Assembly: GCA_964016885.1 (NCBI GenBank)
Contig: OZ024746.1
Location: 57,226,001-57,290,000, forward strand
Direction of reading: 5' to 3'
DNA length: 64,000 nucleotides
From: Eledone cirrhosa
Lineage: Eukaryota
The notes under the pieces were generated by a model, which did not search any database, was not told the DNA's origin, and worked only from the letters and a program-made list of their open reading frames with translations. Positions within the stretch are counted from its first letter, which is position 1. Each line of letters starts with the position of its first letter. Made by a program: the position numbers and the translations under genes. Shown in pieces: positions 11,740-48,003 of this stretch.

Positions 11740-12500
11740 TCCACTCAGGATTAGAAAAGCAAGTGATGCTTTCACAAAGCTAGAAAGGTGATTTTGGAAT
11801 CGGCGAGACATATGCAAGAAGACCACCGTAAAGGTGTACAAGGCATGTGTGCTCCTTCTCTTCTATATGCCTTCGAGAACTGGGTCGCATACCGACATCA
11901 CCTTAAACCGTTGGAACGTCTCCATCAGATGTGTCTCAGACGGATCCATAGCGTTGACTGGAGAGACCATTGATGTGGAGATTTTGGAAAACTCTCCGTG
12001 TGAAATCATAGCAGTTCTTGTGCTTAATCAAAAACTCCGATGGAGGGGTCAGCTTGTCAGGATGGAGGATTTTAGGATAACAAGACAACCCTTTTATGGA
12101 GAGTTAGACGAAGGAAGACGACCTCCACATGACCCCAAAAAGAGGTTAAGGATTCGCTGGAAGCCTACTTGAAAGCCGCTAACATCTCTGCTGATGCATG
12201 GAAAAGCGTAGCTGCTGAGCGTAGTAAAAGGAGAACGTAGTAAAAGGAGAAAGATTGTACATGAGGGAAAGCGGCTTTTGAATCATCTCAAATCGGATAC
12301 GAGAAAGTAAAAAGGGATGTGAGGAAAGTCATTGCTTTTACAATTCCCGACAGCAAAGTTCCCCTTATAGCGCTGATATGCTGCGTCTTTGCAAGACTGT
12401 GCCTCAGCAAATCTGGATTCATATGTCATTTTCGCAGTCATAAGGTGAGAACAGTGGTTGACTACCGGGCTGATGTCAGAGATGCTACTCATCATACCTG
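11740..12500 (+). mobile_element. RTE-clade LINE, decayed 3' portion
   Basis: Across frames: KVYKACVL / YAFENWVAYRHHLKPLERLHQMCLRRI / KLRWRGQLVRMEDFRITRQPFYGELDEGRRP, the typical RTE post-RT region, then a C-terminal Cys/His remnant. Confidence 0.85.
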
Positions 12501-12699
12501 CCAAGTATGTTGAAAATGTGTAGTTCAGCAGGAAGGCTCAATTGACATGCACAAGTACATGATGACCAAACACAGCCGGCTATTGCCAGTGGATGTTTTT
12601 ATCCAGGTTGCCAACTCCGTGCAAGACATTTTAGATCATTGGCTGGGCTAAAAAGCCACATTCGATCGCAGCACCGTTAATTATTAATATATATATATA

Positions 12700-15600
12700 T
12701 TGGAATAAATGCTCTGAAATAGCGATATATATGTGAATATAGACATAGAATATTCGAAAATATTCTGTATGTTTATAATAAACATTTTGAAGACCTAATC
12801 GCTATAGAATAGAATACGTCACGTATTACAATTAGATTCTCGATAAAAGCAAGGGAAGTAAATCTACGCGTTTCATTCTCGTTAGAAATCGTCAGGACTA
12901 CATATCCAGTGCTTTCATCGAGAATGACACAGCTAGAGACTTATAGAATACTTAGCTGTGTACAGGAACTGGTTTGAAAGAGCGGTTGCCGGTCCGGCAG
13001 AAATTAGAAATTGGAATAAATGCTCTGAAATAGCGATATATATGTGAATATAGACATAGAATATTCGAAAATATTCTGTATGTTTATAATAAACATTTTG
13101 AAGACCTAATCGCTATAGAATAGAATACGTCACGTATTACAATTAGATTCTCGATAAAAGCAAGGGAAGTAAATCTACGCGTTTCATTCTCGTTAGAAAT
13201 CGTCAGGACTACATATCCAGTGCTTTCATCGAGAATGACACAGCTAGAGACTTATAGAATACTTAGCTGTGTACAGGAACTGGTTTGAAAGAGCGGTTGC
13301 CGGTCCGGCAGAAATTAGAAATTGGAATAAATGCTCTGAAATAGCGATATATATGTGAATATAGACATAGAATATTCGAAAATATTCTGTATGTTTATAA
13401 TAAACATTTTGAAGACCTAATCGCTATAGAATAGAATACGTCACGTATTACAATTAGATTCTCGATAAAAGCAAGGGAAGTAAATCTACGCGTTTCATTC
13501 TCGTTAGAAATCGTCAGGACTACATATCCAGTGCTTTCATCGAGAATGACACAGCTAGAGACTTATAGAATACTTAGCTGTGTACAGGAACTGGTTTGAA
13601 AGAGCGGTTGCCGGTCCGGCAGAAATTAGAAATTGGAATAAATGCTCTGAAATAGCGATATATATGTGAATATAGACATAGAATATTCGAAAATATTCTG
13701 TATGTTTATAATAAACATTTTGAAGACCTAATCGCTATAGAATAGAATACGTCACGTATTACAATTAGATTCTCGATAAAAGCAAGGGAAGTAAATCTAC
13801 GCGTTTCATTCTCGTTAGAAATCGTCAGGACTACATATCCAGTGCTTTCATCGAGAATGACACAGCTAGAGACTTATAGAATACTTAGCTGTGTACAGGA
13901 ACTGGTTTGAAAGAGCGGTTGCCGGTCCGGCAGAAATTAGAAATTGGAATAAATGCTCTGAAATAGCGATATATATGTGAATATAGACATAGAATATTCG
14001 AAAATATTCTGTATGTTTATAATAAACATTTTGAAGACCTAATCGCTATAGAATAGAATACGTCACGTATTACAATTAGATTCTCGATAAAAGCAAGGGA
14101 AGTAAATCTACGCGTTTCATTCTCGTTAGAAATCGTCAGGACTACATATCCAGTGCTTTCATCGAGAATGACACAGCTAGAGACTTATAGAATACTTAGC
14201 TGTGTACAGGAACTGGGTTTGAAAGAGCGGTTGCCGGTCCGGCAGAAATTAGAAATTGGAATAAATGCTCTGAAATAGCGATATATATGTGAATATAGAC
14301 ATAGAATATTCGAAAATATTCTGTATGTTTATAATAAACATTTTGAAGACCTAATCGCTATAGAATAGAATACGTCACGTATTACAATTAGATTCTCGAT
14401 AAAAGCAAGGGAAGTAAATCTACGCGTTTCATTCTCGTTAGAAATCGTCAGGACTACATATCCAGTGCTTTCATCGAGAATGACACAGCTAGAGACTTAT
14501 AGAATACTTAGCTGTGTACAGGAACTGGTTTGAAAGAGCGGTTGCCGGTCCGGCAGAAATTAGAAATTGGAATAAATGCTCTGAAATAGCGATATATATG
14601 TGAATATAGACATAGAATATTCGAAAATATTCTGTATGTTTATAATAAACATTTTGAAGACCTAATCGCTATAGAATAGAATACGTCACGTATTACAATT
14701 AGATTCTCGATAAAAGCAAGGGAAGTAAATCTACGCGTTTCATTCTCGTTAGAAATCGTCAGGACTACATATCCAGTGCTTTCATCGAGAATGACACAGC
14801 TAGAGACTTATAGAATACTTAGCTGTGTACAGGAACTGGTTTGAAAGAGCGGTTGCCGGTCCGGCAGAAATTAGAAATTGGAATAAATGCTCTGAAATAG
14901 CGATATATATGTGAATATAGACATAGAATATTCGAAAATATTCTGTATGTTTATAATAAACATTTTGAAGACCTAATCGCTATAGAATAGAATACGTCAC
15001 GTATTACAATTAGATTCTCGATAAAAGCAAGGGAAGTAAATCTACGCGTTTCATTCTCGTTAGAAATCGTCAGGACTACATATCCAGTGCTTTCATCGAG
15101 AATGACACAGCTAGAGACTTATAGAATACTTAGCTGTGTACAGGAACTGGTTTGAAAGAGCGGTTGCCGGTCCGGCAGAAATTAGAAATTGGAATAAATG
15201 CTCTGAAATAGCGATATATATGTGAATATAGACATAGAATATTCGAAAATATTCTGTATGTTTATAATAAACATTTTGAAGACCTAATCGCTATAGAATA
15301 GAATACGTCACGTATTACAATTAGATTCTCGATAAAAGCAAGGGAAGTAAATCTACGCGTTTCATTCTCGTTAGAAATCGTCAGGACTACATATCCAGTG
15401 CTTTCATCGAGAATGACACAGCTAGAGACTTATAGAATACTTAGCTGTGTACAGGAACTGGTTTGAAAGAGCGGTTGCCGGTCCGGCAGAAATTAGAAAT
15501 TGGAATAAATGCTCTGAAATAGCGATATATATGTGAATATAGACATAGAATATTCGAAAATATTCTGTATGTTTATAATAAACATTTTGAAGACCTAATC

Positions 15601-18600
15601 GCTATAGAATAGAATACGTCACGTATTACAATTAGATTCTCGATAAAAGCAAGGGAAGTAAATCTACGCGTTTCATTCTCGTTAGAAATCGTCAGGACTA
15701 CATATCCAGTGCTTTCATCGAGAATGACACAGCTAGAGACTTATAGAATACTTAGCTGTGTACAGGAACTGGTTTGAAAGAGCGGTTGCCGGTCCGGCAG
15801 AAATTAGAAATTGGAATAAATGCTCTGAAATAGCGATATATATGTGAATATAGACATAGAATATTCGAAAATATTCTGTATGTTTATAATAAACATTTTG
15901 AAGACCTAATCGCTATAGAATAGAATACGTCACGTATTACAATTAGATTCTCGATAAAAGCAAGGGAAGTAAATCTACGCGTTTCATTCTCGTTAGAAAT
16001 CGTCAGGACTACATATCCAGTGCTTTCATCGAGAATGACACAGCTAGAGACTTATAGAATACTTAGCTGTGTACAGGAACTGGTTTGAAAGAGCGGTTGC
16101 CGGTCCGGCAGAAATTAGAAATTGGAATAAATGCTCTGAAATAGCGATATATATGTGAATATAGACATAGAATATTCGAAAATATTCTGTATGTTTATAA
16201 TAAACATTTTGAAGACCTAATCGCTATAGAATAGAATACGTCACGTATTACAATTAGATTCTCGATAAAAGCAAGGGAAGTAAATCTACGCGTTTCATTC
16301 TCGTTAGAAATCGTCAGGACTACATATCCAGTGCTTTCATCGAGAATGACACAGCTAGAGACTTATAGAATACTTAGCTGTGTACAGGAACTGGTTTGAA
16401 AGAGCGGTTGCCGGTCCGGCAGAAATTAGAAATTGGAATAAATGCTCTGAAATAGCGATATATATGTGAATATAGACATAGAATATTCGAAAATATTCTG
16501 TATGTTTATAATAAACATTTTGAAGACCTAATCGCTATAGAATAGAATACGTCACGTATTACAATTAGATTCTCGATAAAAGCAAGGGAAGTAAATCTAC
16601 GCGTTTCATTCTCGTTAGAAATCGTCAGGACTACATATCCAGTGCTTTCATCGAGAATGACACAGCTAGAGACTTATAGAATACTTAGCTGTGTACAGGA
16701 ACTGGTTTGAAAGAGCGGTTGCCGGTCCGGCAGAAATTAGAAATTGGAATAAATGCTCTGAAATAGCGATATATATGTGAATATAGACATAGAATATTCG
16801 AAAATATTCTGTATGTTTATAATAAACATTTTGAAGACCTAATCGCTATAGAATAGAATACGTCACGTATTACAATTAGATTCTCGATAAAAGCAAGGGA
16901 AGTAAATCTACGCGTTTCATTCTCGTTAGAAATCGTCAGGACTACATATCCAGTGCTTTCATCGAGAATGACACAGCTAGAGACTTATAGAATACTTAGC
17001 TGTGTACAGGAACTGGTTTGAAAGAGCGGTTGCCGGTCCGGCAGAAATTAGAAATTGGAATAAATGCTCTGAAATAGCGATATATATGTGAATATAGACA
17101 TAGAATATTCGAAAATATTCTGTATGTTTATAATAAACATTTTGAAGACCTAATCGCTATAGAATAGAATACGTCACGTATTACAATTAGATTCTCGATA
17201 AAAGCAAGGGAAGTAAATCTACGCGTTTCATTCTCGTTAGAAATCGTCAGGACTACATATCCAGTGCTTTCATCGAGAATGACACAGCTAGAGACTTATA
17301 GAATACTTAGCTGTGTACAGGAACTGGTTTGAAAGAGCGGTTGCCGGTCCGGCAGAAATTAGAAATTGGAATAAATGCTCTGAAATAGCGATATATATGT
17401 GAATATAGACATAGAATATTCGAAAATATTCTGTATGTTTATAATAAACATTTTGAAGACCTAATCGCTATAGAATAGAATACGTCACGTATTACAATTA
17501 GATTCTCGATAAAAGCAAGGGAAGTAAATCTACGCGTTTCATTCTCGTTAGAAATCGTCAGGACTACATATCCAGTGCTTTCATCGAGAATGACACAGCT
17601 AGAGACTTATAGAATACTTAGCTGTGTACAGGAACTGGTTTGAAAGAGCGGTTGCCGGTCCGGCAGAAATTAGAAATTGGAATAAATGCTCTGAAATAGC
17701 GATATATATGTGAATATAGACATAGAATATTCGAAAATATTCTGTATGTTTATAATAAACATTTTGAAGACCTAATCGCTATAGAATAGAATACGTCACG
17801 TATTACAATTAGATTCTCGATAAAAGCAAGGGAAGTAAATCTACGCGTTTCATTCTCGTTAGAAATCGTCAGGACTACATATCCAGTGCTTTCATCGAGA
17901 ATGACACAGCTAGAGACTTATAGAATACTTAGCTGTGTACAGGAACTGGTTTGAAAGAGCGGTTGCCGGTCCGGCAGAAATTAGAAATTGGAATAAATGC
18001 TCTGAAATAGCGATATATATGTGAATATAGACATAGAATATTCGAAAATATTCTGTATGTTTATAATAAACATTTTGAAGACCTAATCGCTATAGAATAG
18101 AATACGTCACGTATTACAATTAGATTCTCGATAAAAGCAAGGGAAGTAAATCTACGCGTTTCATTCTCGTTAGAAATCGTCAGGACTACATATCCAGTGC
18201 TTTCATCGAGAATGACACAGCTAGAGACTTATAGAATACTTAGCTGTGTACAGGAACTGGTTTGAAAGAGCGGTTGCCGGTCCGGCAGAAATTAGAAATT
18301 GGAATAAATGCTCTGAAATAGCGATATATATGTGAATATAGACATAGAATATTCGAAAATATTCTGTATGTTTATAATAAACATTTTGAAGACCTAATCG
18401 CTATAGAATAGAATACGTCACGTATTACAATTAGATTCTCGATAAAAGCAAGGGAAGTAAATCTACGCGTTTCATTCTCGTTAGAAATCGTCAGGACTAC
18501 ATATCCAGTGCTTTCATCGAGAATGACACAGCTAGAGACTTATAGAATACTTAGCTGTGTACAGGAACTGGTTTGAAAGAGCGGTTGCCGGTCCGGCAGA

Positions 18601-21600
18601 AATTAGAAATTGGAATAAATGCTCTGAAATAGCGATATATATGTGAATATAGACATAGAATATTCGAAAATATTCTGTATGTTTATAATAAACATTTTGA
18701 AGACCTAATCGCTATAGAATAGAATACGTCACGTATTACAATTAGATTCTCGATAAAAGCAAGGGAAGTAAATCTACGCGTTTCATTCTCGTTAGAAATC
18801 GTCAGGACTACATATCCAGTGCTTTCATCGAGAATGACACAGCTAGAGACTTATAGAATACTTAGCTGTGTACAGGAACTGGTTTGAAAGAGCGGTTGCC
18901 GGTCCGGCAGAAATTAGAAATTGGAATAAATGCTCTGAAATAGCGATATATATGTGAATATAGACATAGAATATTCGAAAATATTCTGTATGTTTATAAT
19001 AAACATTTTGAAGACCTAATCGCTATAGAATAGAATACGTCACGTATTACAATTAGATTCTCGATAAAAGCAAGGGAAGTAAATCTACGCGTTTCATTCT
19101 CGTTAGAAATCGTCAGGACTACATATCCAGTGCTTTCATCGAGAATGACACAGCTAGAGACTTATAGAATACTTAGCTGTGTACAGGAACTGGTTTGAAA
19201 GAGCGGTTGCCGGTCCGGCAGAAATTAGAAATTGGAATAAATGCTCTGAAATAGCGATATATATGTGAATATAGACATAGAATATTCGAAAATATTCTGT
19301 ATGTTTATAATAAACATTTTGAAGACCTAATCGCTATAGAATAGAATACGTCACGTATTACAATTAGATTCTCGATAAAAGCAAGGGAAGTAAATCTACG
19401 CGTTTCATTCTCGTTAGAAATCGTCAGGACTACATATCCAGTGCTTTCATCGAGAATGACACAGCTAGAGACTTATAGAATACTTAGCTGTGTACAGGAA
19501 CTGGTTTGAAAGAGCGGTTGCCGGTCCGGCAGAAATTAGAAATTGGAATAAATGCTCTGAAATAGCGATATATATGTGAATATAGACATAGAATATTCGA
19601 AAATATTCTGTATGTTTATAATAAACATTTTGAAGACCTAATCGCTATAGAATAGAATACGTCACGTATTACAATTAGATTCTCGATAAAAGCAAGGGAA
19701 GTAAATCTACGCGTTTCATTCTCGTTAGAAATCGTCAGGACTACATATCGAGAATGACACAGCTAGAGACTTATAGAATACTTAGCTGTGTACAGGAACT
19801 GGTTTGAAAGAGCGGTTGCCGGTCCGGCAGAAATTAGAAATTGGAATAAATGCTCTGAAATAGCGATATATATGTGAATATAGACATAGAATATTCGAAA
19901 ATATTCTGTATGTTTATAATAAACATTTTGAAGACCTAATCGCTATAGAATAGAATACGTCACGTATTACAATTAGATTCTCGATAAAAGCAAGGGAAGT
20001 AAATCTACGCGTTTCATTCTCGTTAGAAATCGTCAGGACTACATATCCAGTGCTTTCATCGAGAATGACACAGCTAGAGACTTATAGAATACTTAGCTGT
20101 GTACAGGAACTGGTTTGAAAGAGCGGTTGCCGGTCCGGCAGAAATTAGAAATTGGAATAAATGCTCTGAAATAGCGATATATATGTGAATATAGACATAG
20201 AATATTCGAAAATATTCTGTATGTTTATAATAAACATTTTGAAGACCTAATCGCTATAGAATAGAATACGTCACGTATTACAATTAGATTCTCGATAAAA
20301 GCAAGGGAAGTAAATCTACGCGTTTCATTCTCGTTAGAAATCGTCAGGACTACATATCCAGTGCTTTCATCGAGAATGACACAGCTAGAGACTTATAGAA
20401 TACTTAGCTGTGTACAGGAACTGGTTTGAAAGAGCGGTTGCCGGTCCGGCAGAAATTAGAAATTGGAATAAATGCTCTGAAATAGCGATATATATGTGAA
20501 TATAGACATAGAATATTCGAAAATATTCTGTATGTTTATAATAAACATTTTGAAGACCTAATCGCTATAGAATAGAATACGTCACGTATTACAATTAGAT
20601 TCTCGATAAAAGCAAGGGAAGTAAATCTACGCGTTTCATTCTCGTTAGAAATCGTCAGGACTACATATCCAGTGCTTTCATCGAGAATGACACAGCTAGA
20701 GACTTATAGAATACTTAGCTGTGTACAGGAACTGGTTTGAAAGAGCGGTTGCCGGTCCGGCAGAAATTAGAAATTGGAATAAATGCTCTGAAATAGCGAT
20801 ATATATGTGAATATAGACATAGAATATTCGAAAATATTCTGTATGTTTATAATAAACATTTTGAAGACCTAATCGCTATAGAATAGAATACGTCACGTAT
20901 TACAATTAGATTCTCGATAAAAGCAAGGGAAGTAAATCTACGCGTTTCATTCTCGTTAGAAATCGTCAGGACTACATATCCAGTGCTTTCATCGAGAATG
21001 ACACAGCTAGAGACTTATAGAATACTTAGCTGTGTACAGGAACTGGTTTGAAAGAGCGGTTGCCGGTCCGGCAGAAATTAGAAATTGGAATAAATGCTCT
21101 GAAATAGCGATATATATGTGAATATAGACATAGAATATTCGAAAATATTCTGTATGTTTATAATAAACATTTTGAAGACCTAATCGCTATAGAATAGAAT
21201 ACGTCACGTATTACAATTAGATTCTCGATAAAAGCAAGGGAAGTAAATCTACGCGTTTCATTCTCGTTAGAAATCGTCAGGACTACATATCCAGTGCTTT
21301 CATCGAGAATGACACAGCTAGAGACTTATAGAATACTTAGCTGTGTACAGGAACTGGTTTGAAAGAGCGGTTGCCGGTCCGGCAGAAATTAGAAATTGGA
21401 ATAAATGCTCTGAAATAGCGATATATATGTGAATATAGACATAGAATATTCGAAAATATTCTGTATGTTTATAATAAACATTTTGAAGACCTAATCGCTA
21501 TAGAATAGAATACGTCACGTATTACAATTAGATTCTCGATAAAAGCAAGGGAAGTAAATCTACGCGTTTCATTCTCGTTAGAAATCGTCAGGACTACATA

Positions 21601-24600
21601 TCCAGTGCTTTCATCGAGAATGACACAGCTAGAGACTTATAGAATACTTAGCTGTGTACAGGAACTGGTTTGAAAGAGCGGTTGCCGGTCCGGCAGAAAT
21701 TAGAAATTGGAATAAATGCTCTGAAATAGCGATATATATGTGAATATAGACATAGAATATTCGAAAATATTCTGTATGTTTATAATAAACATTTTGAAGA
21801 CCTAATCGCTATAGAATAGAATACGTCACGTATTACAATTAGATTCTCGATAAAAGCAAGGGAAGTAAATCTACGCGTTTCATTCTCGTTAGAAATCGTC
21901 AGGACTACATATCCAGTGCTTTCATCGAGAATGACACAGCTAGAGACTTATAGAATACTTAGCTGTGTACAGGAACTGGTTTGAAAGAGCGGTTGCCGGT
22001 CCGGCAGAAATTAGAAATTGGAATAAATGCTCTGAAATAGCGATATATATGTGAATATAGACATAGAATATTCGAAAATATTCTGTATGTTTATAATAAA
22101 CATTTTGAAGACCTAATCGCTATAGAATAGAATACGTCACGTATTACAATTAGATTCTCGATAAAAGCAAGGGAAGTAAATCTACGCGTTTCATTCTCGT
22201 TAGAAATCGTCAGGACTACATATCCAGTGCTTTCATCGAGAATGACACAGCTAGAGACTTATAGAATACTTAGCTGTGTACAGGAACTGGTTTGAAAGAG
22301 CGGTTGCCGGTCCGGCAGAAATTAGAAATTGGAATAAATGCTCTGAAATAGCGATATATATGTGAATATAGACATAGAATATTCGAAAATATTCTGTATG
22401 TTTATAATAAACATTTTGAAGACCTAATCGCTATAGAATAGAATACGTCACGTATTACAATTAGATTCTCGATAAAAGCAAGGGAAGTAAATCTACGCGT
22501 TTCATTCTCGTTAGAAATCGTCAGGACTACATATCCAGTGCTTTCATCGAGAATGACACAGCTAGAGACTTATAGAATACTTAGCTGTGTACAGGAACTG
22601 GTTTGAAAGAGCGGTTGCCGGTCCGGCAGAAATTAGAAATTGGAATAAATGCTCTGAAATAGCGATATATATGTGAATATAGACATAGAATATTCGAAAA
22701 TATTCTGTATGTTTATAATAAACATTTTGAAGACCTAATCGCTATAGAATAGAATACGTCACGTATTACAATTAGATTCTCGATAAAAGCAAGGGAAGTA
22801 AATCTACGCGTTTCATTCTCGTTAGAAATCGTCAGGACTACATATCCAGTGCTTTCATCGAGAATGACACAGCTAGAGACTTATAGAATACTTAGCTGTG
22901 TACAGGAACTGGTTTGAAAGAGCGGTTGCCGGTCCGGCAGAAATTAGAAATTGGAATAAATGCTCTGAAATAGCGATATATATGTGAATATAGACATAGA
23001 ATATTCGAAAATATTCTGTATGTTTATAATAAACATTTTGAAGACCTAATCGCTATAGAATAGAATACGTCACGTATTACAATTAGATTCTCGATAAAAG
23101 CAAGGGAAGTAAATCTACGCGTTTCATTCTCGTTAGAAATCGTCAGGACTACATATCCAGTGCTTTCATCGAGAATGACACAGCTAGAGACTTATAGAAT
23201 ACTTAGCTGTGTACAGGAACTGGGTTTGAAAGAGCGGTTGCCGGTCCGGCAGAAATTAGAAATTGGAATAAATGCTCTGAAATAGCGATATATATGTGAA
23301 TATAGACATAGAATATTCGAAAATATTCTGTATGTTTATAATAAACATTTTGAAGACCTAATCGCTATAGAATAGAATACGTCACGTATTACAATTAGAT
23401 TCTCGATAAAAGCAAGGGAAGTAAATCTACGCGTTTCATTCTCGTTAGAAATCGTCAGGACTACATATCCAGTGCTTTCATCGAGAATGACACAGCTAGA
23501 GACTTATAGAATACTTAGCTGTGTACAGGAACTGGTTTGAAAGAGCGGTTGCCGGTCCGGCAGAAATTAGAAATTGGAATAAATGCTCTGAAATAGCGAT
23601 ATATATGTGAATATAGACATAGAATATTCGAAAATATTCTGTATGTTTATAATAAACATTTTGAAGACCTAATCGCTATAGAATAGAATACGTCACGTAT
23701 TACAATTAGATTCTCGATAAAAGCAAGGGAAGTAAATCTACGCGTTTCATTCTCGTTAGAAATCGTCAGGACTACATATCCAGTGCTTTCATCGAGAATG
23801 ACACAGCTAGAGACTTATAGAATACTTAGCTGTGTACAGGAACTGGTTTGAAAGAGCGGTTGCCGGTCCGGCAGAAATTAGAAATTGGAATAAATGCTCT
23901 GAAATAGCGATATATATGTGAATATAGACATAGAATATTCGAAAATATTCTGTATGTTTATAATAAACATTTTGAAGACCTAATCGCTATAGAATAGAAT
24001 ACGTCACGTATTACAATTAGATTCTCGATAAAAGCAAGGGAAGTAAATCTACGCGTTTCATTCTCGTTAGAAATCGTCAGGACTACATATCCAGTGCTTT
24101 CATCGAGAATGACACAGCTAGAGACTTATAGAATACTTAGCTGTGTACAGGAACTGGTTTGAAAGAGCGGTTGCCGGTCCGGCAGAAATTAGAAATTGGA
24201 ATAAATGCTCTGAAATAGCGATATATATGTGAATATAGACATAGAATATTCGAAAATATTCTGTATGTTTATAATAAACATTTTGAAGACCTAATCGCTA
24301 TAGAATAGAATACGTCACGTATTACAATTAGATTCTCGATAAAAGCAAGGGAAGTAAATCTACGCGTTTCATTCTCGTTAGAAATCGTCAGGACTACATA
24401 TCCAGTGCTTTCATCGAGAATGACACAGCTAGAGACTTATAGAATACTTAGCTGTGTACAGGAACTGGGTTTGAAAGAGCGGTTGCCGGTCCGGCAGAAA
24501 TTAGAAATTGGAATAAATGCTCTGAAATAGCGATATATATGTGAATATAGACATAGAATATTCGAAAATATTCTGTATGTTTATAATAAACATTTTGAAG

Positions 24601-25185
24601 ACCTAATCGCTATAGAATAGAATACGTCACGTATTACAATTAGATTCTCGATAAAAGCAAGGGAAGTAAATCTACGCGTTTCATTCTCGTTAGAAATCGT
24701 CAGGACTACATATCCAGTGCTTTCATCGAGAATGACACAGCTAGAGACTTATAGAATACTTAGCTGTGTACAGGAACTGGTTTGAAAGAGCGGTTGCCGG
24801 TCCGGCAGAAATTAGAAATTGGAATAAATGCTCTGAAATAGCGATATATATGTGAATATAGACATAGAATATTCGAAAATATTCTGTATGTTTATAATAA
24901 ACATTTTGAAGACCTAATCGCTATAGAATAGAATACGTCACGTATTACAATTAGATTCTCGATAAAAGCAAGGGAAGTAAATCTACGCGTTTCATTCTCG
25001 TTAGAAATCGTCAGGACTACATATCCAGTGCTTTCATCGAGAATGACACAGCTAGAGACTTATAGAATACTTAGCTGTGTACAGGAACTGGTTTGAAAGA
25101 GCGGTTGCCGGTCCGGCAGAAATTAGAAATTGGAATAAATGCTCTGAAATAGCGATATATATGTGAATATAGACATAGAATATTC
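12700..25185 (-). repeat. Tandem array of a 311-bp hammerhead-containing monomer (retrozyme-like satellite), 40 full copies plus a partial; ribozyme on the minus strand
   Basis: tggaataaat starts at 12701, 13012, 13323 ... 25131. The span of 12430 equals 40x311 plus three 1-bp insertions minus one 13-bp deletion. Confidence 0.97.
12836..12926 (-). ncRNA. Type I hammerhead ribozyme, first of 40 minus-strand copies (core 12865-12895)
   Basis: Reverse complement: gtagtc CTGACGA tttct-aacg-agaat GAAA CGCGTA gatttac, enclosed by attctcgatgaaagca / tgcttttatcgagaat. Confidence 0.8.
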
Positions 25186-27748
25186 TATAGCGATTAGGTC
25201 TTCAAAATGTTTATTATAAACATACAGAATATTTTCGAATATTCTATGTCTATATTCACATATATATCGCTATTTCAGAGCATTTATTCCAATTTCTAAT
25301 TTCTGCCGGACCGGCAACCGCTCTTTCAAACCAGTTCCTGTACACAGCTAAGTATTCTATAAGTCTCTAGCTGTGTCATTCTCGATGAAAGCACTGGATA
25401 TGTAGTCCTGACGATTTCTAACGAGAATGAAACGCGTAGATTTACTTCCCTTGCTTTTATCGAGAATCTAATTGTAATACGTGACGTATTCTATTCTATA
25501 GCGATTAGGTCTTCAAAATGTTTATTATAAACATACAGAATATTTTCGAATATTCTATGTCTATATTCACATATATATCGCTATTTCAGAGCATTTATTC
25601 CAATTTCTAATTTCTGCCGGACCGGCAACCGCTCTTTCAAACCAGTTCCTGTACACAGCTAAGTATTCTATAAGTCTCTAGCTGTGTCATTCTCGATGAA
25701 AGCACTGGATATGTAGTCCTGACGATTTCTAACGAGAATGAAACGCGTAGATTTACTTCCCTTGCTTTTATCGAGAATCTAATTGTAATACGTGACGTAT
25801 TCTATTCTATAGCGATTAGGTCTTCAAAATGTTTATTATAAACATACAGAATATTTTCGAATATTCTATGTCTATATTCACATATATATCGCTATTTCAG
25901 AGCATTTATTCCAATTTCTAATTTCTGCCGGACCGGCAACCGCTCTTTCAAACCAGTTCCTGTACACAGCTAAGTATTCTATAAGTCTCTAGCTGTGTCA
26001 TTCTCGATGAAAGCACTGGATATGTAGTCCTGACCATTTCTAACGAGAATGAAACGCGTAGATTTACTTCCCTTGCTTTTATCGAGAATCTAATTGTAAT
26101 ACGTGACGTATTCTATTCTATAGCGATTAGGTCTTCAAAATGTTTATTATAAACATACAGAATATTTTCGAATATTCTATGTCTATATTCACATATATAT
26201 CGCTATTTCAGAGCATTTATTCCAATTTCTAATTTCTGCCGGACCGGCAACCACTCTTTCAAACCAGTTCCTGTACACAGCTAAGTATTCTATAAGTCTC
26301 TAGCTGTGTCATTCTCGATGAAAGCACTGGATATGTAGTCCTGACGATTTCTAACGAGAATGAAACGCGTAGATTTACTTCCCTTGCTTTTATCGAGAAT
26401 CTAATTGTAATACGTGACGTATTCTATTCTATAGCGATTAGGTCTTCAAAATGTTTATTATAAACATACAGAATATTTTCGAATATTCTATGTCTATATT
26501 CACATATATATCGCTATTTCAGAGCATTTATTCCAATTTCTAATTTCTGCCGGACCGGCAACCGCTCTTTCAAACCAGTTCCTGTACACAGCTAAGTATT
26601 CTATAAGTCTCTAGCTGTGTCATTCTCGATGAAAGCACTGGATATGTAGTCCTGACGATTTCTAACGAGAATGAAACGCGTAGATTTACTTCCCTTGCTT
26701 TTATCGAGAATCTAATTGTAATACGTGACGTATTCTATTCTATAGCGATTAGGTCTTCAAAATGTTTATTATAAACATACAGAATATTTTCGAATATTCT
26801 ATGTCTATATTCACATATATATCGCTATTTCAGAGCATTTATTCCAATTTCTAATTTCTGCCGGACCGGCAACCGCTCTTTCAAACCAGTTCCTGTACAC
26901 AGCTAAGTATTCTATAAGTCTCTAGCTGTGTCATTCTCGATGAAAGCACTGGATATGTAGTCCTGACGATTTCTAACGAGAATGAAACGCGTAGATTTAC
27001 TTCCCTTGCTTTTATCGAGAATCTAATTGTAATACGTGACGTATTCTATTCTATAGCGATTAGGTCTTCAAAATGTTTATTATAAACATACAGAATATTT
27101 TCGAATATTCTATGTCTATATTCACATATATATCGCTATTTCAGAGCATTTATTCCAATTTCTAATTTCTGCCGGACCGGCAACCGCTCTTTCAAACCCA
27201 GTTCCTGTACACAGCTAAGTATTCTATAAGTCTCTAGCTGTGTCATTCTCGATGAAAGCACTGGATATGTAGTCCTGACGATTTCTAACGAGAATGAAAC
27301 GCGTAGATTTACTTCCCTTGCTTTTATCGAGAATCTAATTGTAATACGTGACGTATTCTATTCTATAGCGATTAGGTCTTCAAAATGTTTATTATAAACA
27401 TACAGAATATTTTCGAATATTCTATGTCTATATTCACATATATATCGCTATTTCAGAGCATTTATTCCAATTTCTAATTTCTGCCGGACCGGCAACCGCT
27501 CTTTCAAACCAGTTCCTGTACACAGCTAAGTATTCTATAAGTCTCTAGCTGTGTCATTCTCGATGAAAGCACTGGATATGTAGTCCTGACGATTTCTAAC
27601 GAGAATGAAACGCGTAGATTTACTTCCCTTGCTTTTATCGAGAATCTAATTGTAATACGTGACGTATTCTATTCTATAGCGATTAGGTCTTCAAAATGTT
27701 TATTATAAACATACAGAATATTTTCGAATATTCTATGTCTATATTCAC

Positions 27749-27756
<8 letters not shown>
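25181..27756 (+). repeat. Inverted block of the same 311-bp monomer (~8.3 copies, 8 hammerhead motifs on +), ending in (TA)n
   Basis: Reverse complement of the left array. Core motifs run from 25408 to 27586 at 311-bp spacing, with one +1 insertion. Confidence 0.97.
25377..25467 (+). ncRNA. Type I hammerhead ribozyme, first plus-strand copy
   Basis: CTGACGA 25408-25414, stem II TTCT/AGAA with AACG loop, GAAA 25429-25432, palindromic ACGCGT, predicted cleavage after GUA at 25438. Confidence 0.8.
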
Positions 27757-27791
<35 letters not shown>

Positions 27792-27849
27792 ATAGTGTGT
27801 GTACATTTTAATAGTTAATATACAATCAAGATACTTCCAATTATCTTAC

Positions 27850-27894
27850 AAAATTCGAATTTCGCTCATTGAAACTAAATACACTTGCGTCGTT

Positions 27895-27983
<89 letters not shown>

Positions 27984-28019
27984 GGCGCAAGTGTATTTAG
28001 TTTCCATGAGCGAAATTCG

Positions 28020-28025
<6 letters not shown>
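27850..28025. repeat. ~46-bp inverted repeats flanking a (TA)n tract
   Basis: aaaattcgaatttcgctcattgaaactaaatacacttgcgtcgttt ... (TA)n ... aaacggcgcaagtgtatttagtttccatgagcgaaattcgaatttt. Confidence 0.85.
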
Positions 28026-28061
<36 letters not shown>

Positions 28062-28067
<6 letters not shown>

Positions 28068-28245
28068 CTCTAAAATATTAATAAATATAGAGATTCACGT
28101 GATCAAATATATGAATGTCTATATTTATTAATATTTTAAAGTAATATTAATAACTCCAGAAAATATTACTGTAGAGTGCTTCGGGTCTTTTGTGAAACAT
28201 TATTCATTGATTAATTCATTGAACCTTGTTAAACTTTTAACTATA
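28062..28245 (+). mobile_element. Fold-back element related to 1602-1873
   Basis: Inverted arms span ~28062-28147, the tail tattcattgattaattcattgaacc is shared, and both sides abut TA runs. Confidence 0.6.
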
Positions 28246-28249
28246 TATA

Positions 28250-29551
28250 TGGCTATATAGCTATAATGGCTATATGGATAAAACTAACGCGGTGAAGACG
28301 GCGAACAAGGGCCGTCAAGCGCGGCGACAGAATGACCGTCTTTCGGAGCGCGGGCGACCACCCGAGACCAAGCCGGCCCCCGAGGCGACCGGATCGCACG
28401 CGGAGGGCGATGTGGTCCAACGCCGAGAGGGAACTAGAGGCATATGGGAGAACACAGTGTCGGCGGAACAACACCCTGGGAACATTGAGAAAGCCATAAC
28501 AATTCGAGGCCCGGACATCAGATGCGTTAGAACTGACAACAGAACTTGTAACTGCAGAGCGGGCCCCCAGTGCCCCCTACAGGGAAAATGCCTGACGAAG
28601 GACCTGATACACAAGTGCGTGTTTACAACCCAAAATTGCGCATCAAACCTACATCGGCGCAACATCCACGACCTTTAAATCGCAGATGTATAATCACACG
28701 TATTCCTTCAGAGACCGTAGCAAAAGGCACTCCACTAGGTTAGCGAACCTGGTGTAGGACCTGAAAGACCAAGGCACTCCGTACGCCCTGGATAGAGTAT
28801 AGTCCGCCATGCGAGGGCATATTCAGTAGATAATCAAACTGAAAGATGACGCGGTCAACCTGAAGTCTGAAATTATCATGTCTTGCAGGCACCAGAGAAG
28901 ATGCACTTTTGTAGCATGGAATCCTCCGGGTGGCACAGGCCAGGGGCATTGGACCGGGCGCGCAGAGACCCGAACGGCCCAACGGGATTAAGGGACCTGA
29001 CGCCATGCTGTGATGACATTGTGCGACACGTGTGGCAAACATAAGTAAACCAGGTTTCGCACCTGACCGAGAACGCATCATTGGGCAGATACATCGCCTA
29101 GGCCGGACCGGCCCATACGTTTTTCACGGTCGTCCGATACCCCAAACAAATAGAACAGCACACCCCAGGCACGGTGCCCTAACGCATGGTGACCGGTCCA
29201 AGCGTCCCCTTGAATGTGTACCCCGTCAATCGTGAATATATACTCTCCACATGTTCCACGTTGGAACAATTATTATTACTGCTGTTATTGTTTTGTTATT
29301 GTTACTTGCTCCAGATACGGACCTAAGTTTGCACCTCATACTACCTGTGTGTGGTATATCACATGGATACACGCATCTTCTTTTGTACCCCCCTCCCCCC
29401 TGTTTTTTATTTACCCCTTTTTTAATGTATTTATTTGTGAAGTTACATAGGGATTTTAATGTATTTTAAAATATTGTAAATTAATTTATTTCATTTTATT
29501 TTATTATCCTATTGTGTTTATATGTGTGTTTTTATGTGTAGACCTGTCCGA

Positions 29552-29599
<48 letters not shown>

Positions 29600-42392: not shown

Positions 42393-45300
42393 TAACATCT
42401 CCACTAGGTTTCTGTAAATCCGAAATCAACAAAATCTATTTGCAGGGGCCTGCAAGTTAATTGGAAGATATAAGAGTGGAATTTACTTGGTCAACAAGTT
42501 CTCTTTCTGCCGCCGCCGGCTGCAAGGACTAGTAGTAAACACTGTTAGTAGTCAAGTGGTTTCTCCGAAGGTGGTCAAATTTAAAATTTGAACAAAAGAT
42601 TTAAATCCTTTACACAAACCGAATAAAAGCTCTCAACTAGATGTTATTAAACAAATATAAACAAGGATATATAGATATATAGATATATAGATATATAGAC
42701 ATAGATATATAGATATATGAGGCAAATTCTGATATTTGGAAGTTCAGCCTTCTCTTGCAATCTGTACCTGCTTGCAGTAAATTATTTGTGTCAAACGAAA
42801 TGCAATCTAATGTCACACACATGTGGTGACGCATGGCTTATTTGTTTGGTTGTTCGTCCCCCGACCGTAAGCTTGTGGTGTCGATTATCGATGACATGTT
42901 GTGACTTTAGGAAAAGTACATTATTCAACGTTTCTCCACTCCACTATGCTGGCAAATAGGAATCGTAACTGTGATTCATACTCTCTTCTGCTTTATCATA
43001 CACTATCGATCTTTCCACTTAATATATTTAATCTATATCTCTCTGGGGTATGTTCAGACAGACACACATTAAATGCACGATCAGACAGATCTGTTGTTCT
43101 AAATATGGAACACTGATAGTCGGGACCGATGGAGTTCTAGCAATTACATCTAGATTTCTCTGTCATGTAACATGTATTAATGTCTTTGATACTAACCACA
43201 TGAAACTGCCACTCATTCCCTACAGAGAGTCAGCGATACTATCATGTTTACTTGCAGTCAATCGCAGGTTCAAACCTCAAAAAAACGTATTACGTATCTT
43301 TAAAAGATCCCAATTTCATACACACGTGTACAATTAAATTAAATGGATTGTCGATTTGGAAAAAATCCCAAACTGAGAAGTTAGTATGGCGTTATGAAAT
43401 GTAATATGATTTAGATTTGGTGAATTTAGATTGTGCATGATCAAGGAAGGTAGAGTAAAAAACTAAGCTTTTCGGTTTGCTGTAATGAAAGTAATATTGA
43501 GAAAATTTGGTGCTTAATTGAAAATAAAATTTACGTATTATATACTTTGCATATGACTCTAAATGCTCAAAACCACTGATCATAATTCGATGTAAGCATC
43601 GTTGTTTCCCCCCAAACACCAGCTTAATAACGAGAAAGTGAGTTATATTACTGCCCCCTTCAATTACTTTGAATCAAAATGATTTATAAATCATAAGCAT
43701 TGTATAGAATTATAAATATGGTAATAACATATTTAAACCGTATATGTTCACTCATTTCATATTTGGAGGCTAAACAATTACTGCAACAACTAGTTCCCTC
43801 TTCTACTCTCGAATATGTCACATTTTTCTTTAACAACCTACTTGTAGTATCTACGAAATATTCAGTTATAGATTAAACTAGTGTAACTTCAACTACACTT
43901 TTCCTAACAAGTCATGTCTAAATTTATAAACAAGTTGAATTAGTAATAACGTTATGATAGAAATGTAAGCAGTAGAGGGAGTAGTAGCAACAGTAGTTAT
44001 AGTATATTTCAACCAGCTGATAATATTGGCTCTTGCAAAATTGGTAAAGCTGCGAAGCAAAGATGTAACCAGCAATGTTATACCGTTCTGATTTCTATGA
44101 TAACTGAAATAAATGTTTATTTGTGTGGAAATATTTTGACTATTGTAAGAATGACATAAAAAATGAATAAATGAAAGAAAAAAAATCTTGCTATCAGTGT
44201 TACTTCATGCGTTCAGCCACAGATATGATTCTCTAAACATAAACATAGGGTGGCAAATCTCGTGATAACGTGTTATATGAAGTTATATCATTTAAGTATA
44301 TTTTTTGGCGAAACAAAAATATATATGGGAATAAAGGGAAAGTAAGATAGAAAAAATGAATACCTATGAGAATCACCAATTTGAAACGCAGTAATACAAG
44401 TTAAAAGTTTATTATGTTAGATTGGTACAAGAAATCATATCAAGAGGAATAACGTGTATTAATGCATCGTTATTTAGTCCGTATTTATATTTCATTTTTC
44501 ATTTGTACATGATCAACTATACACCTCACAGGAACATCTTAAATATATCTTACTGAGCTACAAACATAGCAAAAACTATGTATCCAACCGCACACGCAAA
44601 CCAACACACACGCAAACCCACACACAATCACCCGCCATATATATATATATATATATATACATTCATACATATAAATATATTCATGTATATAAATATATAC
44701 ATGTATATGAGAGTGAGCGTATCAGTTTATCTATTTACGCTATTATAACTCGCAAAAATCTTGTAGCCTTTAGTTCTAGTCGTTTCCGTCAATTTTCTTC
44801 ATCAGTCACCCTTCTCTCTTTGCCAACTCCAGATTCTTCTTCTATTGGGCTCCTACCTCCTTCTATCGTTTCCTCGCTCTCTCCTAACATACACTCTTCC
44901 GTCATACCCAATCTCAAACAGCCAGCTCCATTTCATACTCAAAGGCTTCGCCCGTTTGCTTCCAATCCACCTTGTCTCTCTTCCTCTTCACATTTACTCG
45001 CTAGTAAAGTCACGTCACATTTCTGAGCCGATGACTCCTCCACCGAATACCCCGGGATTTCCTGCTCTATGTCCACACTATCTCTAACTCCACCGCTACA
45101 ATTGTGCACATCCTTATTTCCTCTCCTACCATCTCTTGTACAACCCCTTCAAACTCCCAAATATCTTTCATCGACCGTAATCTCCAAACAGCCTACGTTC
45201 TTTTTTCTCCAATTGACACAGCCTCCACGCCTAATCCATTACACACTTCACTATGCACATCACACGTCACTGCTTAATTTCCTTACTTCCGGCAAGAAAC

Positions 45301-45569
45301 ACAGACCTGACTCACTGCGCTCTCCGTCTGCTGTACCCACACACATCCGCCTCAATTACAGTTTTGATCCTACTTTATTTCCAAATCTACCATCGCCCCC
45401 AGCCCCACATTTGTCTCCAATACTGACCTCGTACACCCCACACCTAACTATCACAGTCCCACTGCACCCACCAATACTTTCACTCCCTCATGCACACCCT
45501 ACACTGCTTTTACCCCAGCCGAATGACTACCACATTCTAAGCAGCAATTCGACAAAATGGTTAATTAAG

Positions 45570-46515
45570 CACACATCTCCGTCGCCTTCGACCCCTCCCA
45601 CCACTCCCTCGTCACCTCCGCCTTCTTCAAACCCACGGACTCCCACTGTTACCTCGACTTCACCTCTTCCCACCCCACCCACACTAAACTCTCCATTCCC
45701 TACTCCCAACTTCTCAGGATCCGCCGGCTCTGTAGCCGAGATGCTGACTTCGAGTCCCAGGCCCTTTCCCTAGTCAGCCATTTCATCCGCAGAGGTTACC
45801 CCCCCCCCCCTCTCTCGTCTACACCGCTCTCACCCGCGCCCGTGCTATCCCCCGCTCCACCACCCTCACTCCACGCCACTGCACATCCACCCACCGTCTC
45901 CCCTTCCCCATCACCTACCACCACTCCACACTACCCCTCCAACGCACCATCCGCCGCCTCTTCCGACGCCTCCAGTCCGACCCCTCCACCTCCCACATCT
46001 TCCCAACCCCACCACTCCCCTCCTTCAAACGCGCACGTAATCTCCGCACCCTCCTCGTCCACAGCTCCCTACCCCCCAACCCATGCTCCGTTCCCCCCCG
46101 GTTCCTTCCGCTGTTCTAGGCCCCGCTGCAACACCTGTCCCCACATCACCAACACCACCACCTCCCAGGGTCCCAACGGCTACTCTCTCTCGGTCTGGCA
46201 TGCCTTCCGCTGCACCGCCTCCAACCTAGTCTACGGACTTCGTTGCACGGAGTGCAGCGCGACTTATGTCGGACAGACGGGACGTCGCCTGGCGGACCGA
46301 GTCACGGAGCACCTCCGGGATATTCGTCTCGGGGGCAGTTCCCCCATCGCCCGCCACTTTGGTGGCCGTGGACACTCCGCACGCCATCTCACAGTCTGTG
46401 GGCTACTCCAGTGCCACGGAACACCCGCCCATCGCCTTACGGTCAAACAACGCACTATCTTCATCTTACAGACCCACACTCCGCCCGGCCTGAACTCCCC
46501 ACCCTTATTCCTTTA
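45570..46515 (+). pseudogene. PLE RT C-terminal thumb and GIY-YIG endonuclease (frameshifted)
   Basis: FFKPTDSHCYLDFTSSHPTHTKLSIPYSQLLRIRRLCS...FIRRGYP, then RCSRPRCNTCPHI...CTASNLVYGLRCTECSATYVGQTGRRLADRVTEH...PPGLN. Confidence 0.92.
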
Positions 46516-47844
46516 GCGTTCGACCGCCCCCCTCCCCCCACACTTATCCCCCACTAACACCACTAACACACCCCTCCTTTTCACCGCCCACCCCACACTA
46601 ACAATACTAACACCTCCACTCCACCCTTCATCTGACCACCCTTCCCCAACTAACATACTAACATCCCTTCCCTCCCCTCTTCTCCTCCTCCCCCTCCTTA
46701 TCACACGCACCCACTTACACCACCCACCCCACACGCAACTAACATCACTAACACCCTCCAACCCCACGCACACGTACCCACACACCCTCGTACACCACCA
46801 ACTCTACACACCCTACCCCCACTAACCCCCACTCACACCTGCATTCCACCCCTCCCACCTCCCGTATACTAACACCCACTAACACCTCTTCACCAAACTA
46901 CACACACACCAGTACACCATACTCCCTCCATAGAACCACACACACCCTCTCTCCCCGCTCCACACTCACTCATCCCACTAACACCCCTACTAATACACAC
47001 ACACACACACACACCCTCCTCACTCCCACTCTCACACCTACCCATCCTCGCCTCCCTACCATTCCGCCGACTGCTGCTATGCCCTTCCGACCACCTCTCA
47101 GCACCAACTGACCACAGCACTCCCACTGCTGACCGCTTCCTGTTGCGCGCGCACCAAACATCTCTACTCTTCCAACCACCGCTTCTTGGATTACCCACAC
47201 GCGAAATTGACTTCTAACCAAAATCTCCAAACATCCGTGGAACTTACCAACTTTTCAACCATCCTCTTACACCATCACCTATATAACACACACACATACC
47301 CCAACAACATTTTTGTTTATCCACACGCCACCCACACACACAACACGCTTAAACCACACACACGTGCTTCCCACCACATATTTACACCCTCAGCCTCCTG
47401 ATTCCTCTTCCCCCACCCCCCTATCCACACACGCACAGACACTCCGACCCACAAAAACACCCCCCAAACACACCTTCCTGAACATGCAACCCCGTTCTTC
47501 CCCCAACCCTCACTTTCACATAGACACACACACACGCACACCTAACCACACACACCACCTTCAGCCCTCCCCGCTCGGACACCCCGTCTCCCTCTCCCCA
47601 CTCCACCCGCCACCACCCCTACTCACCCCACACCCTTCCACCACCCTTTTAATTTCAGTTTATTTTGATCATGCCTTTATTTTTAAATTTTCTCATTCCA
47701 TTCCTTGTATTTTGATCATGCTTTTTTTTTATTTATTATATTTTTTGTCTTTATTTGTTAATTTTTCATTCGCACCGTTTCCTTTCGCTATATGTCTCTC
47801 CACCACTCCCCTACGCACCTTTTGAACTCTGTTGCCACACACTT

Positions 47845-47882
47845 CTCACCCGAAGAAGGGCTTATGCCCGAAACGTCGTCCC
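47845..47882 (+). ncRNA. Minimal PLE-type hammerhead motif
   Basis: CCGAAGA A GGGC-TTAT-GCCC GAAA CGTC: perfect stem II, minimal stem III, U4C change, weak stem I. Confidence 0.65.
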
Positions 47883-47964
47883 CCACCTGCCCCCCACTCT
47901 CCTGAGCGTGAATTTAATAAACATTTATCGTACTGCCTCTCTTTTCTGTCCCTGTTCAATTTTC

Positions 47965-48003
<39 letters not shown>

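Follow-up and report, generated by a model that had tools for sequence, protein, structure and literature searches.

How does an array built from a single short repeat come to turn round on itself, so that its two arms run outward from one internal joint into the same simple sequence at either end? Such an array occupies positions 12699-27756 of a 64,000-nucleotide stretch of the Eledone cirrhosa genome (GenBank assembly GCA_964016885.1, contig OZ024746.1, forward-strand positions 57,226,001 to 57,290,000), referred to here in its entirety as the window. We consider it probable that the block is one insertion of a hammerhead repeat (a non-LTR retrozyme), whose arms were reverse-transcribed from both ends of a (TA)n cut by a Penelope-like reverse transcriptase (RT)/GIY-YIG enzyme. 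The enzyme would most likely have acted as a dimer, beginning at a pair of fixed positions ~30 nt from each other on a single RNA, probably a circle.

Matching the repeat along the window resolves the block into a 311-bp unit and nothing else, with 40.2 copies whose RNA-sense strand reads to the left and 8.3 copies whose RNA-sense strand reads to the right. The head-to-tail units of the left arm (12699-25185, minus strand) include 39 full copies, 35 of them identical to the reference unit; the right arm (25181-27756, plus strand) includes seven, four of them identical. With unit positions (q) counted from the predicted cleavage site, the outer end of the left arm lies at q166, the ‘long’ start site, and that of the right arm at the ‘short’ start site, which is q140 by maximal match and q131-133 if the AT overlap is discounted. 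The left outer end alone therefore carries unit positions q141-166 (12699-12724, minus strand), a ‘tail’ in the sense of PMC8557442. Beyond the left arm stands a 14-bp (AT)7 target remnant (12687-12700) whose last 2 nt are common to the unit, and beyond the right arm an (AT)11 remnant (27749-27770) whose first 8 nt are common to it and which is followed by (TG)n. The left arm has 40 hammerhead cores, all on the minus strand, and the right arm seven exact ones on the plus strand, with none on the unit’s other strand, so the sense strands face outward. Of the 40 predicted type I motifs in the left arm, the one closest to the joint lies at 24977-25020 (minus strand), and a right-arm counterpart lies at 25402-25445 (plus strand), with cleavage predicted from its sequence after 25438. 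Core strands and flanks together confirm what a preliminary description of this DNA had reported, namely outward ribozyme-sense strands and AT runs at both ends.

The arms meet through five shared bases, TATTC (25181-25185), at inner ends q110 and q54, within a 14-bp palindrome (25175-25188); unit matching and a palindrome scan reproduce the overlap, the palindrome and their coordinates exactly as first described. Five or more shared bases are expected in fewer than 1% of random joins. The left arm halts on the first loop base of the unit’s own internal hairpin, a structure that the preceding unit has at 24862 and the first right-arm copy at 25220-25249 (plus strand). No other even palindrome with arms of at least 4 is centred within 25170-25200; because the unit by itself supplies 8 of the 14 bases, and contains four copies of the 8-mer needed to complete them, the palindrome is a by-product of the join at 25181-25185.

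The unit itself (311 bp, ~35% GC, tandem and putatively non-coding) falls within the range that defines non-LTR retrozymes (150-450 bp, GC <50%), and the 15-kb block, consisting of this unit only, has no open reading frame with the RT and GIY-YIG domains of an autonomous Penelope-like element (PLE). Each unit bears a type I hammerhead motif, giving 47 exact cores in the window. As read from the sequence, the motif comprises stem I, CUGA-N-GA, stem II with one extra base, GAAA, a stem III of 1-2 bp, a palindromic loop and the cleavage triplet, a layout that agrees with the metazoan type I motifs described as working as dimers in PMC4209133. Core, GAAA and cleavage triplet are invariant in 78 of 78 locus units, with changes at N7, in loop 2 and in stem I, a distribution that suggests selection on the RNA. 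Searched at gathering and E-value thresholds, Rfam returned no hammerhead match for the unit; its matches to miRNA families were set aside as fold-back noise. The minimum-free-energy fold of the isolated motif is not a hammerhead, as is expected of short-stem-III hammerheads, which are described as acting as dimers (PMC4209133). In predicted folds the unit performs better than its shuffles, with z -3.2 as a linear and z -4.3 as a circular molecule.

The window block is one of more than 1000 young, near-identical insertions. Exact transitions from unit into (AT)n number 1001 at q166 (long) and 464 at q140 (short) genome-wide, with none for the backwards controls, so copies are dispersed as those of a mobile element are; a whole-unit search of the 3.0-Gb genome gave at least 490 matches from the 37 of 162 candidates that were scored. 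The regions fetched for closer comparison were 18 found by the whole-unit query, 60 covering the 61 long ends that come first on contig C1, and 20 around short ends lacking an exact long partner. In the long-end set from C1, 57 of 61 insertions are two-armed with sense outward, and thus have the inverted 5'-truncated copy beside a tandem that is typical of PLEs; three are single-armed and one is unresolved. Among insertions found by the internal query, 17 of the 19 that could be resolved are two-armed, and for the 28 exact short ends within the stretch of C1 that holds the 61 long ends a hand count gave 22 two-armed, one with a tiny second arm and five single-armed. The single-armed copies of both C1 sets count against the explanation that we prefer. 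The median arm is 3-5 units long, with partial units at both of its ends. Contigs from public sequencing runs likewise contain the unit at very high depth, many joints between its two orientations, and (AT)n ends at the same sites. The survey of other genomic copies that the preliminary description had called for thus finds the same two-armed, TA-anchored layout and no isolated chimera; its view of the block as one insertion event with a Penelope-type footprint and (TA)n at both ends gains from the recurrence of that architecture at other loci.

Several observations from the survey stand apart. The insertion at locus L049 (4827-9551) is inverted two times over, each time through the same 5-bp join. 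One public run, X7, yielded a single low-depth contig with the unit; its 340 nt are what a closed 310-nt cycle would be expected to give. More than half of the unit’s words were found in 20 runs of 18 coded organisms, a spread that trace DNA from a repeat of high copy number could simply explain. Among the runs listed as carrying the unit, none is an RNA run.

It is the outer ends that are most regular. In 73 of 76 scored insertions one end is short (q129-140) and the other long (q156-173), with neither a long/long nor a short/short pair among the 76, and where insertions had been picked by their long end alone the partner was short in 50 of 50. Six loci were lost from the scoring of ends and joints at the anchor step, all of which read long/short on direct inspection; L049, as a double inversion, and L081, as a duplicate, were left out, and 2 of 78 ran beyond the limits of the fetched region. 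A tail at one end only, for which 30-40 bp is given in PLEs, is thus present in 73 of 76 insertions, with an offset of ~26-35 nt by maximal match. Of 152 outer ends, 143 adjoin (TA)4 or more, the target sequence expected of PLEs, a count in which part of the sample had been picked by AT-containing patterns and the partner ends and internal-query set had not; target-site duplications are unreadable within (TA)n. The earlier suggestion of priming by TA microhomology holds to the extent that (TA)n is found at the ends, but TA alone does not set them, since the commonest end, q166 (62 of 152), has only 2 nt in common with the target.

By analogy, this long/short pairing is the Penelope ‘inverted copy plus tail’ footprint. 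PLE insertions are described as having an inverted 5' copy, a tail of 30-40 bp at one end and a (TA)n target (PMC8557442), and the one-ended tail with an inverted copy is also reported in PMC3846280. In vitro, a purified PLE protein for which a dimeric form is predicted nicks each of the two DNA strands and extends it, and its internal start sites on the RNA are two neighbouring positions with the tail between them (PMC11167929). One locus departs from the usual positions: at L043 (4494-5788) the ends are q199 and q229, both shifted by ~65 nt yet 30 nt apart, a spacing such as a fixed distance between two active sites would give.

What turns the array around at its centre was at first thought to be a template switch at the hairpin apex, and a single cDNA that folds back on itself, by self-priming, or changes template at a hairpin or palindrome does have points in its favour: the window joint falls at the hairpin tip with its 14-bp palindrome, an identical join exists at L104, palindromes at inverted rotifer PLE joints have been read as self-priming (PMC3846280), and such an event would likewise give both arms one haplotype. 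Across 78 joints, however, the 156 inner ends are spread over the whole unit: 4 coincide with the apex, where 5.0 would be expected, and 13 fall inside the hairpin, against an expectation of 15.5. The distance separating the inner ends of a joint is uniformly distributed (KS p=0.87, n=73) and lies within 10 nt in 5 of 78 joints against 5.3 expected. Palindromes of at least 12 bp occur at 2 of 87 joints, those of the window and L104, which are the same 5-bp join in different haplotypes and with the roles of long and short arm swapped. Where one arm exceeds the other by more than one unit, it is the short-end arm in 18 and the long-end arm in 37 of 73 loci; a fold-back copy cannot outlast its template, yet either arm can be the longer, which disfavours a fold-back template switch. 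Both outer ends, moreover, lie at fixed sites, often with a match of 1-2 nt, and the flanks are not inverted copies of one another. As a general rule fold-back is largely refuted, and we regard it as an improbable account of these insertions; the hairpin tip at the 25181-25185 joint is incidental. Two or more bases are shared in 35 of 58 insertion-free joints against 17.9% at random (p=8e-13), and 20 of 78 joints carry insertions, of which five of the seven that reach at least 8 nt are templated from the unit. Microhomology and short insertions are the marks of microhomology-mediated end joining, and the joints are better explained by two cDNAs that were primed independently and then united by microhomology than by a single template-switching cDNA. 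That the joints are assembly joins or fold-back read artefacts is scarcely credible: among the listed contigs of public runs none bridges the exact window joint, which is no evidence of absence because contigs are short in such repeats, and against an artefact stand the strict long/short pairing, locus-specific haplotypes and templated patches at ~80 loci, together with the many other joints between two orientations in those same contigs. The assembly, searched for a second haplotype or an empty allele of the right flank, contains neither.

The nature of the template is recorded in sequence variants. Among the 70 loci in which each arm spans a full unit, 66 have identical fixed variants in their two arms. 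The loci represent 33 haplotypes, pairs drawn from different loci agree in 5.5% of cases, and 10,000 permutations reach at most 13 of 70, from which it appears that both arms usually come from one template. Since each insertion has a distinct variant set fixed across all its units, a single-unit bottleneck is indicated, as a monomer circle gives, and the multi-locus survey in this respect supports the multimeric or circular RNA that had been suggested from the window. The same two-ended priming by a PLE could instead have used a linear template, either a long multimeric transcript of a master array that stayed uncleaved or single linear units linked through end-to-end jumps, an alternative that we think unlikely, if a serious one. 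At L079 and L096 both arms carry the same minor variant or haplotype switch at equal unit index, as a linear multimer would give, which counts against a pure circle model, and in vitro a PLE acted mainly on RNA that had not been cleaved, and insertion persisted when the hammerhead was mutated (PMC11167929). Against this, the 33 haplotypes, each fixed over the units of both arms, would need repeated single-unit bottlenecks, and a 12.5-kb RNA with 40 intact hammerheads would have to remain uncut; equal-index sharing, moreover, is found in 5 of 55 testable minor-variant cases (35 loci), although the 50 unshared cases are also what later mutation would give. At L070 one arm alone changes template, so two RNAs can take part in one insertion. 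A model in which the first insertions were short and two-armed, and slippage or unequal crossover lengthened the arrays afterwards, is preferred in bioRxiv 10.64898/2026.07.22.740005, and some later local expansion is indeed indicated by three long arms (L060, L061 and L116), in which variants are repeated at scattered or 7-unit intervals; this process probably adds to the longest arms, so the 40 units in the window need not be one RT run and 40 turns are an upper bound. Singleton minor variants outnumber repeated ones by 111 to 12, however, and at dispersed, near-identical young loci both arms flanking the joint already hold several units and begin and end in partial ones, so that as a general explanation later growth is very improbable.

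The insertion of a retrozyme from both ends of a cut, as we prefer to read it, would proceed in five steps. Arrays would be transcribed, and hammerheads would excise unit-length RNA that closes into a circle. A Penelope-like protein would bind this RNA and nick both (TA)n strands. One end of the cut DNA would then serve as primer at the short site (q129-140) and the opposite end at the long one (q160-173), a pattern that is observed at the insertions and is attributed here to a putative Penelope-like enzyme. Each RT would circle the template for a variable number of turns. Finally, the cDNA 3' ends would meet anywhere in the unit and, as the joints record, be united by 0-5 nt of microhomology or by short templated patches into a head-to-head joint. 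The window joint is such a join that happens to fall at the hairpin tip. A bolder version, to which we hold only tentatively, is that the Penelope-type RT dimer is a machine for double rolling-circle reverse transcription: its subunits, ~30 nt apart on one 310-nt ribozyme circle and each primed by one end of a cut microsatellite, would make up to 40 turns (12.5 kb), retrozyme ‘satellites’ would be written in one step, and twin priming from two fixed sites would be the normal Penelope pathway, explaining the inverted copy and one-sided tail of PLEs generally.

A candidate for the enzyme exists in the same genome. A young Penelope-like family has intact frames of 758 aa with RT and C-terminal GIY-YIG domains in 10 of 10 copies fetched, 98-99% identical to one another, and a hammerhead core nearly identical to that of the unit, with 10,180 occurrences. 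Its core region is 89% similar to the retrozyme’s over 28 nt, and that of a related non-coding neighbour 73% over 81 nt. Ten of ten regions picked as neighbouring core pairs show the outward long/short footprint. Its tail, however, is ~70 nt as read by eye against 26-35 nt in the retrozyme, and comparison of the sequences around the start sites of the two detected nothing shared; the true partner may therefore be another family. What the Penelope-like family appears to show is kinship and a shared mechanism, not partnership with the retrozyme. In Pfam the intact 758-aa frame gave a weak GIY-YIG match (E=0.022), and a homologue search gave 692 unnamed relatives of ~700 aa, one of them listed with the RT family PF00078, so its status as a PLE rests on motifs and architecture; a PDB search returned nothing relevant. 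This young family was seen at L161-L170 and L151-L160, as intact frames together with non-coding derivatives. Within the window itself, 28066-29557 contains a decayed Penelope-like fragment of an older high-copy family, with a GIY-YIG-like remnant between TA tracts; Pfam named neither this fragment nor two relatives. As a partner, this neighbour was set aside, being old and having no visible link to the unit.

In most of its features the unit resembles the metazoan non-LTR retrozymes, which are described as low-GC, non-coding tandem units of ~310 nt with one type I hammerhead each, forming dimers to 40-mers, co-occurring with PLEs and predicted to form strongly self-paired circles (PMC7229834; bioRxiv 10.64898/2026.07.22.740005). 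The same two sources describe retrozymes as direct tandems, whereas here they are mostly two-armed, head-to-head and TA-targeted with paired fixed ends, and report cleavage and circles for coral, mussel and axolotl retrozymes, whereas for this family both are predicted. EN+ PLEs with an inverted pLTR and tail share with it partial tandems, an inverted 5' copy, a one-ended tail, (TA)n targets and a hammerhead upstream of two internal start sites (PMC8557442, PMC3846280; for PAc in vitro, PMC11167929). Unlike these as described, the retrozyme has no open reading frame, both its arms are long multi-unit concatemers and its joints are not palindromic as a rule; its hammerhead has a full stem I and a short stem III, and that of EN+ PLEs takes the minimal form. 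LINE-1 twin or dual priming offers a further likeness, in that two cDNAs primed from two target ends lie sense outward and meet in a joint with microhomology or end joining, but in LINE-1 a minority of insertions are described as arising in this way, the second site being internal and random and the arms not overlapping (PMC2837659). In the retrozyme, two-ended priming is the rule, both sites are fixed ~30 nt apart, and the arms cover the same sequence many times. A literature search located no paper on two-armed, paired-end retrozyme insertions or on twin priming as the rule for PLEs, although subscription papers and supplements, including the model figure of PMC7229834, may bear on both.

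The origin of the tandem and inverted structures of PLEs is stated as undefined in PMC8557442. That retrozymes are non-autonomous PLEs whose circles serve as templates for tandem cDNA, and so are mobilised by PLEs, is likewise proposed and not shown in the accounts consulted (PMC4209133, PMC7229834, bioRxiv 10.64898/2026.07.22.740005). More than a thousand young insertions amount to a fossil record of the reaction, preserving the RNA sites that prime, their use once each on opposite DNA ends, the usually single template and the joining of inner ends. The family also supplies a small, defined substrate, consisting of a 310-nt RNA and (TA)n DNA, with intact RT frames in the same genome, and thus makes the open question of how PLEs insert directly testable.

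The surroundings of the block hold some minor features of their own. On its right, at 27847-28028, 46 bp of unique flank sequence are duplicated in inverted orientation across (TA)43 with 2 mismatches, these being the only two matches in the genome; the arrangement looks like fold-back or templated repair at a microsatellite. In the left flank, 11800-12450 contains what we take, by eye, to be a decayed LINE-type RT fragment. Further to the right, a 3-kb stretch at 45001-48000 is GC-rich and strongly C-skewed (GC up to 0.59, skew ~-0.6), unlike the sequence around it.
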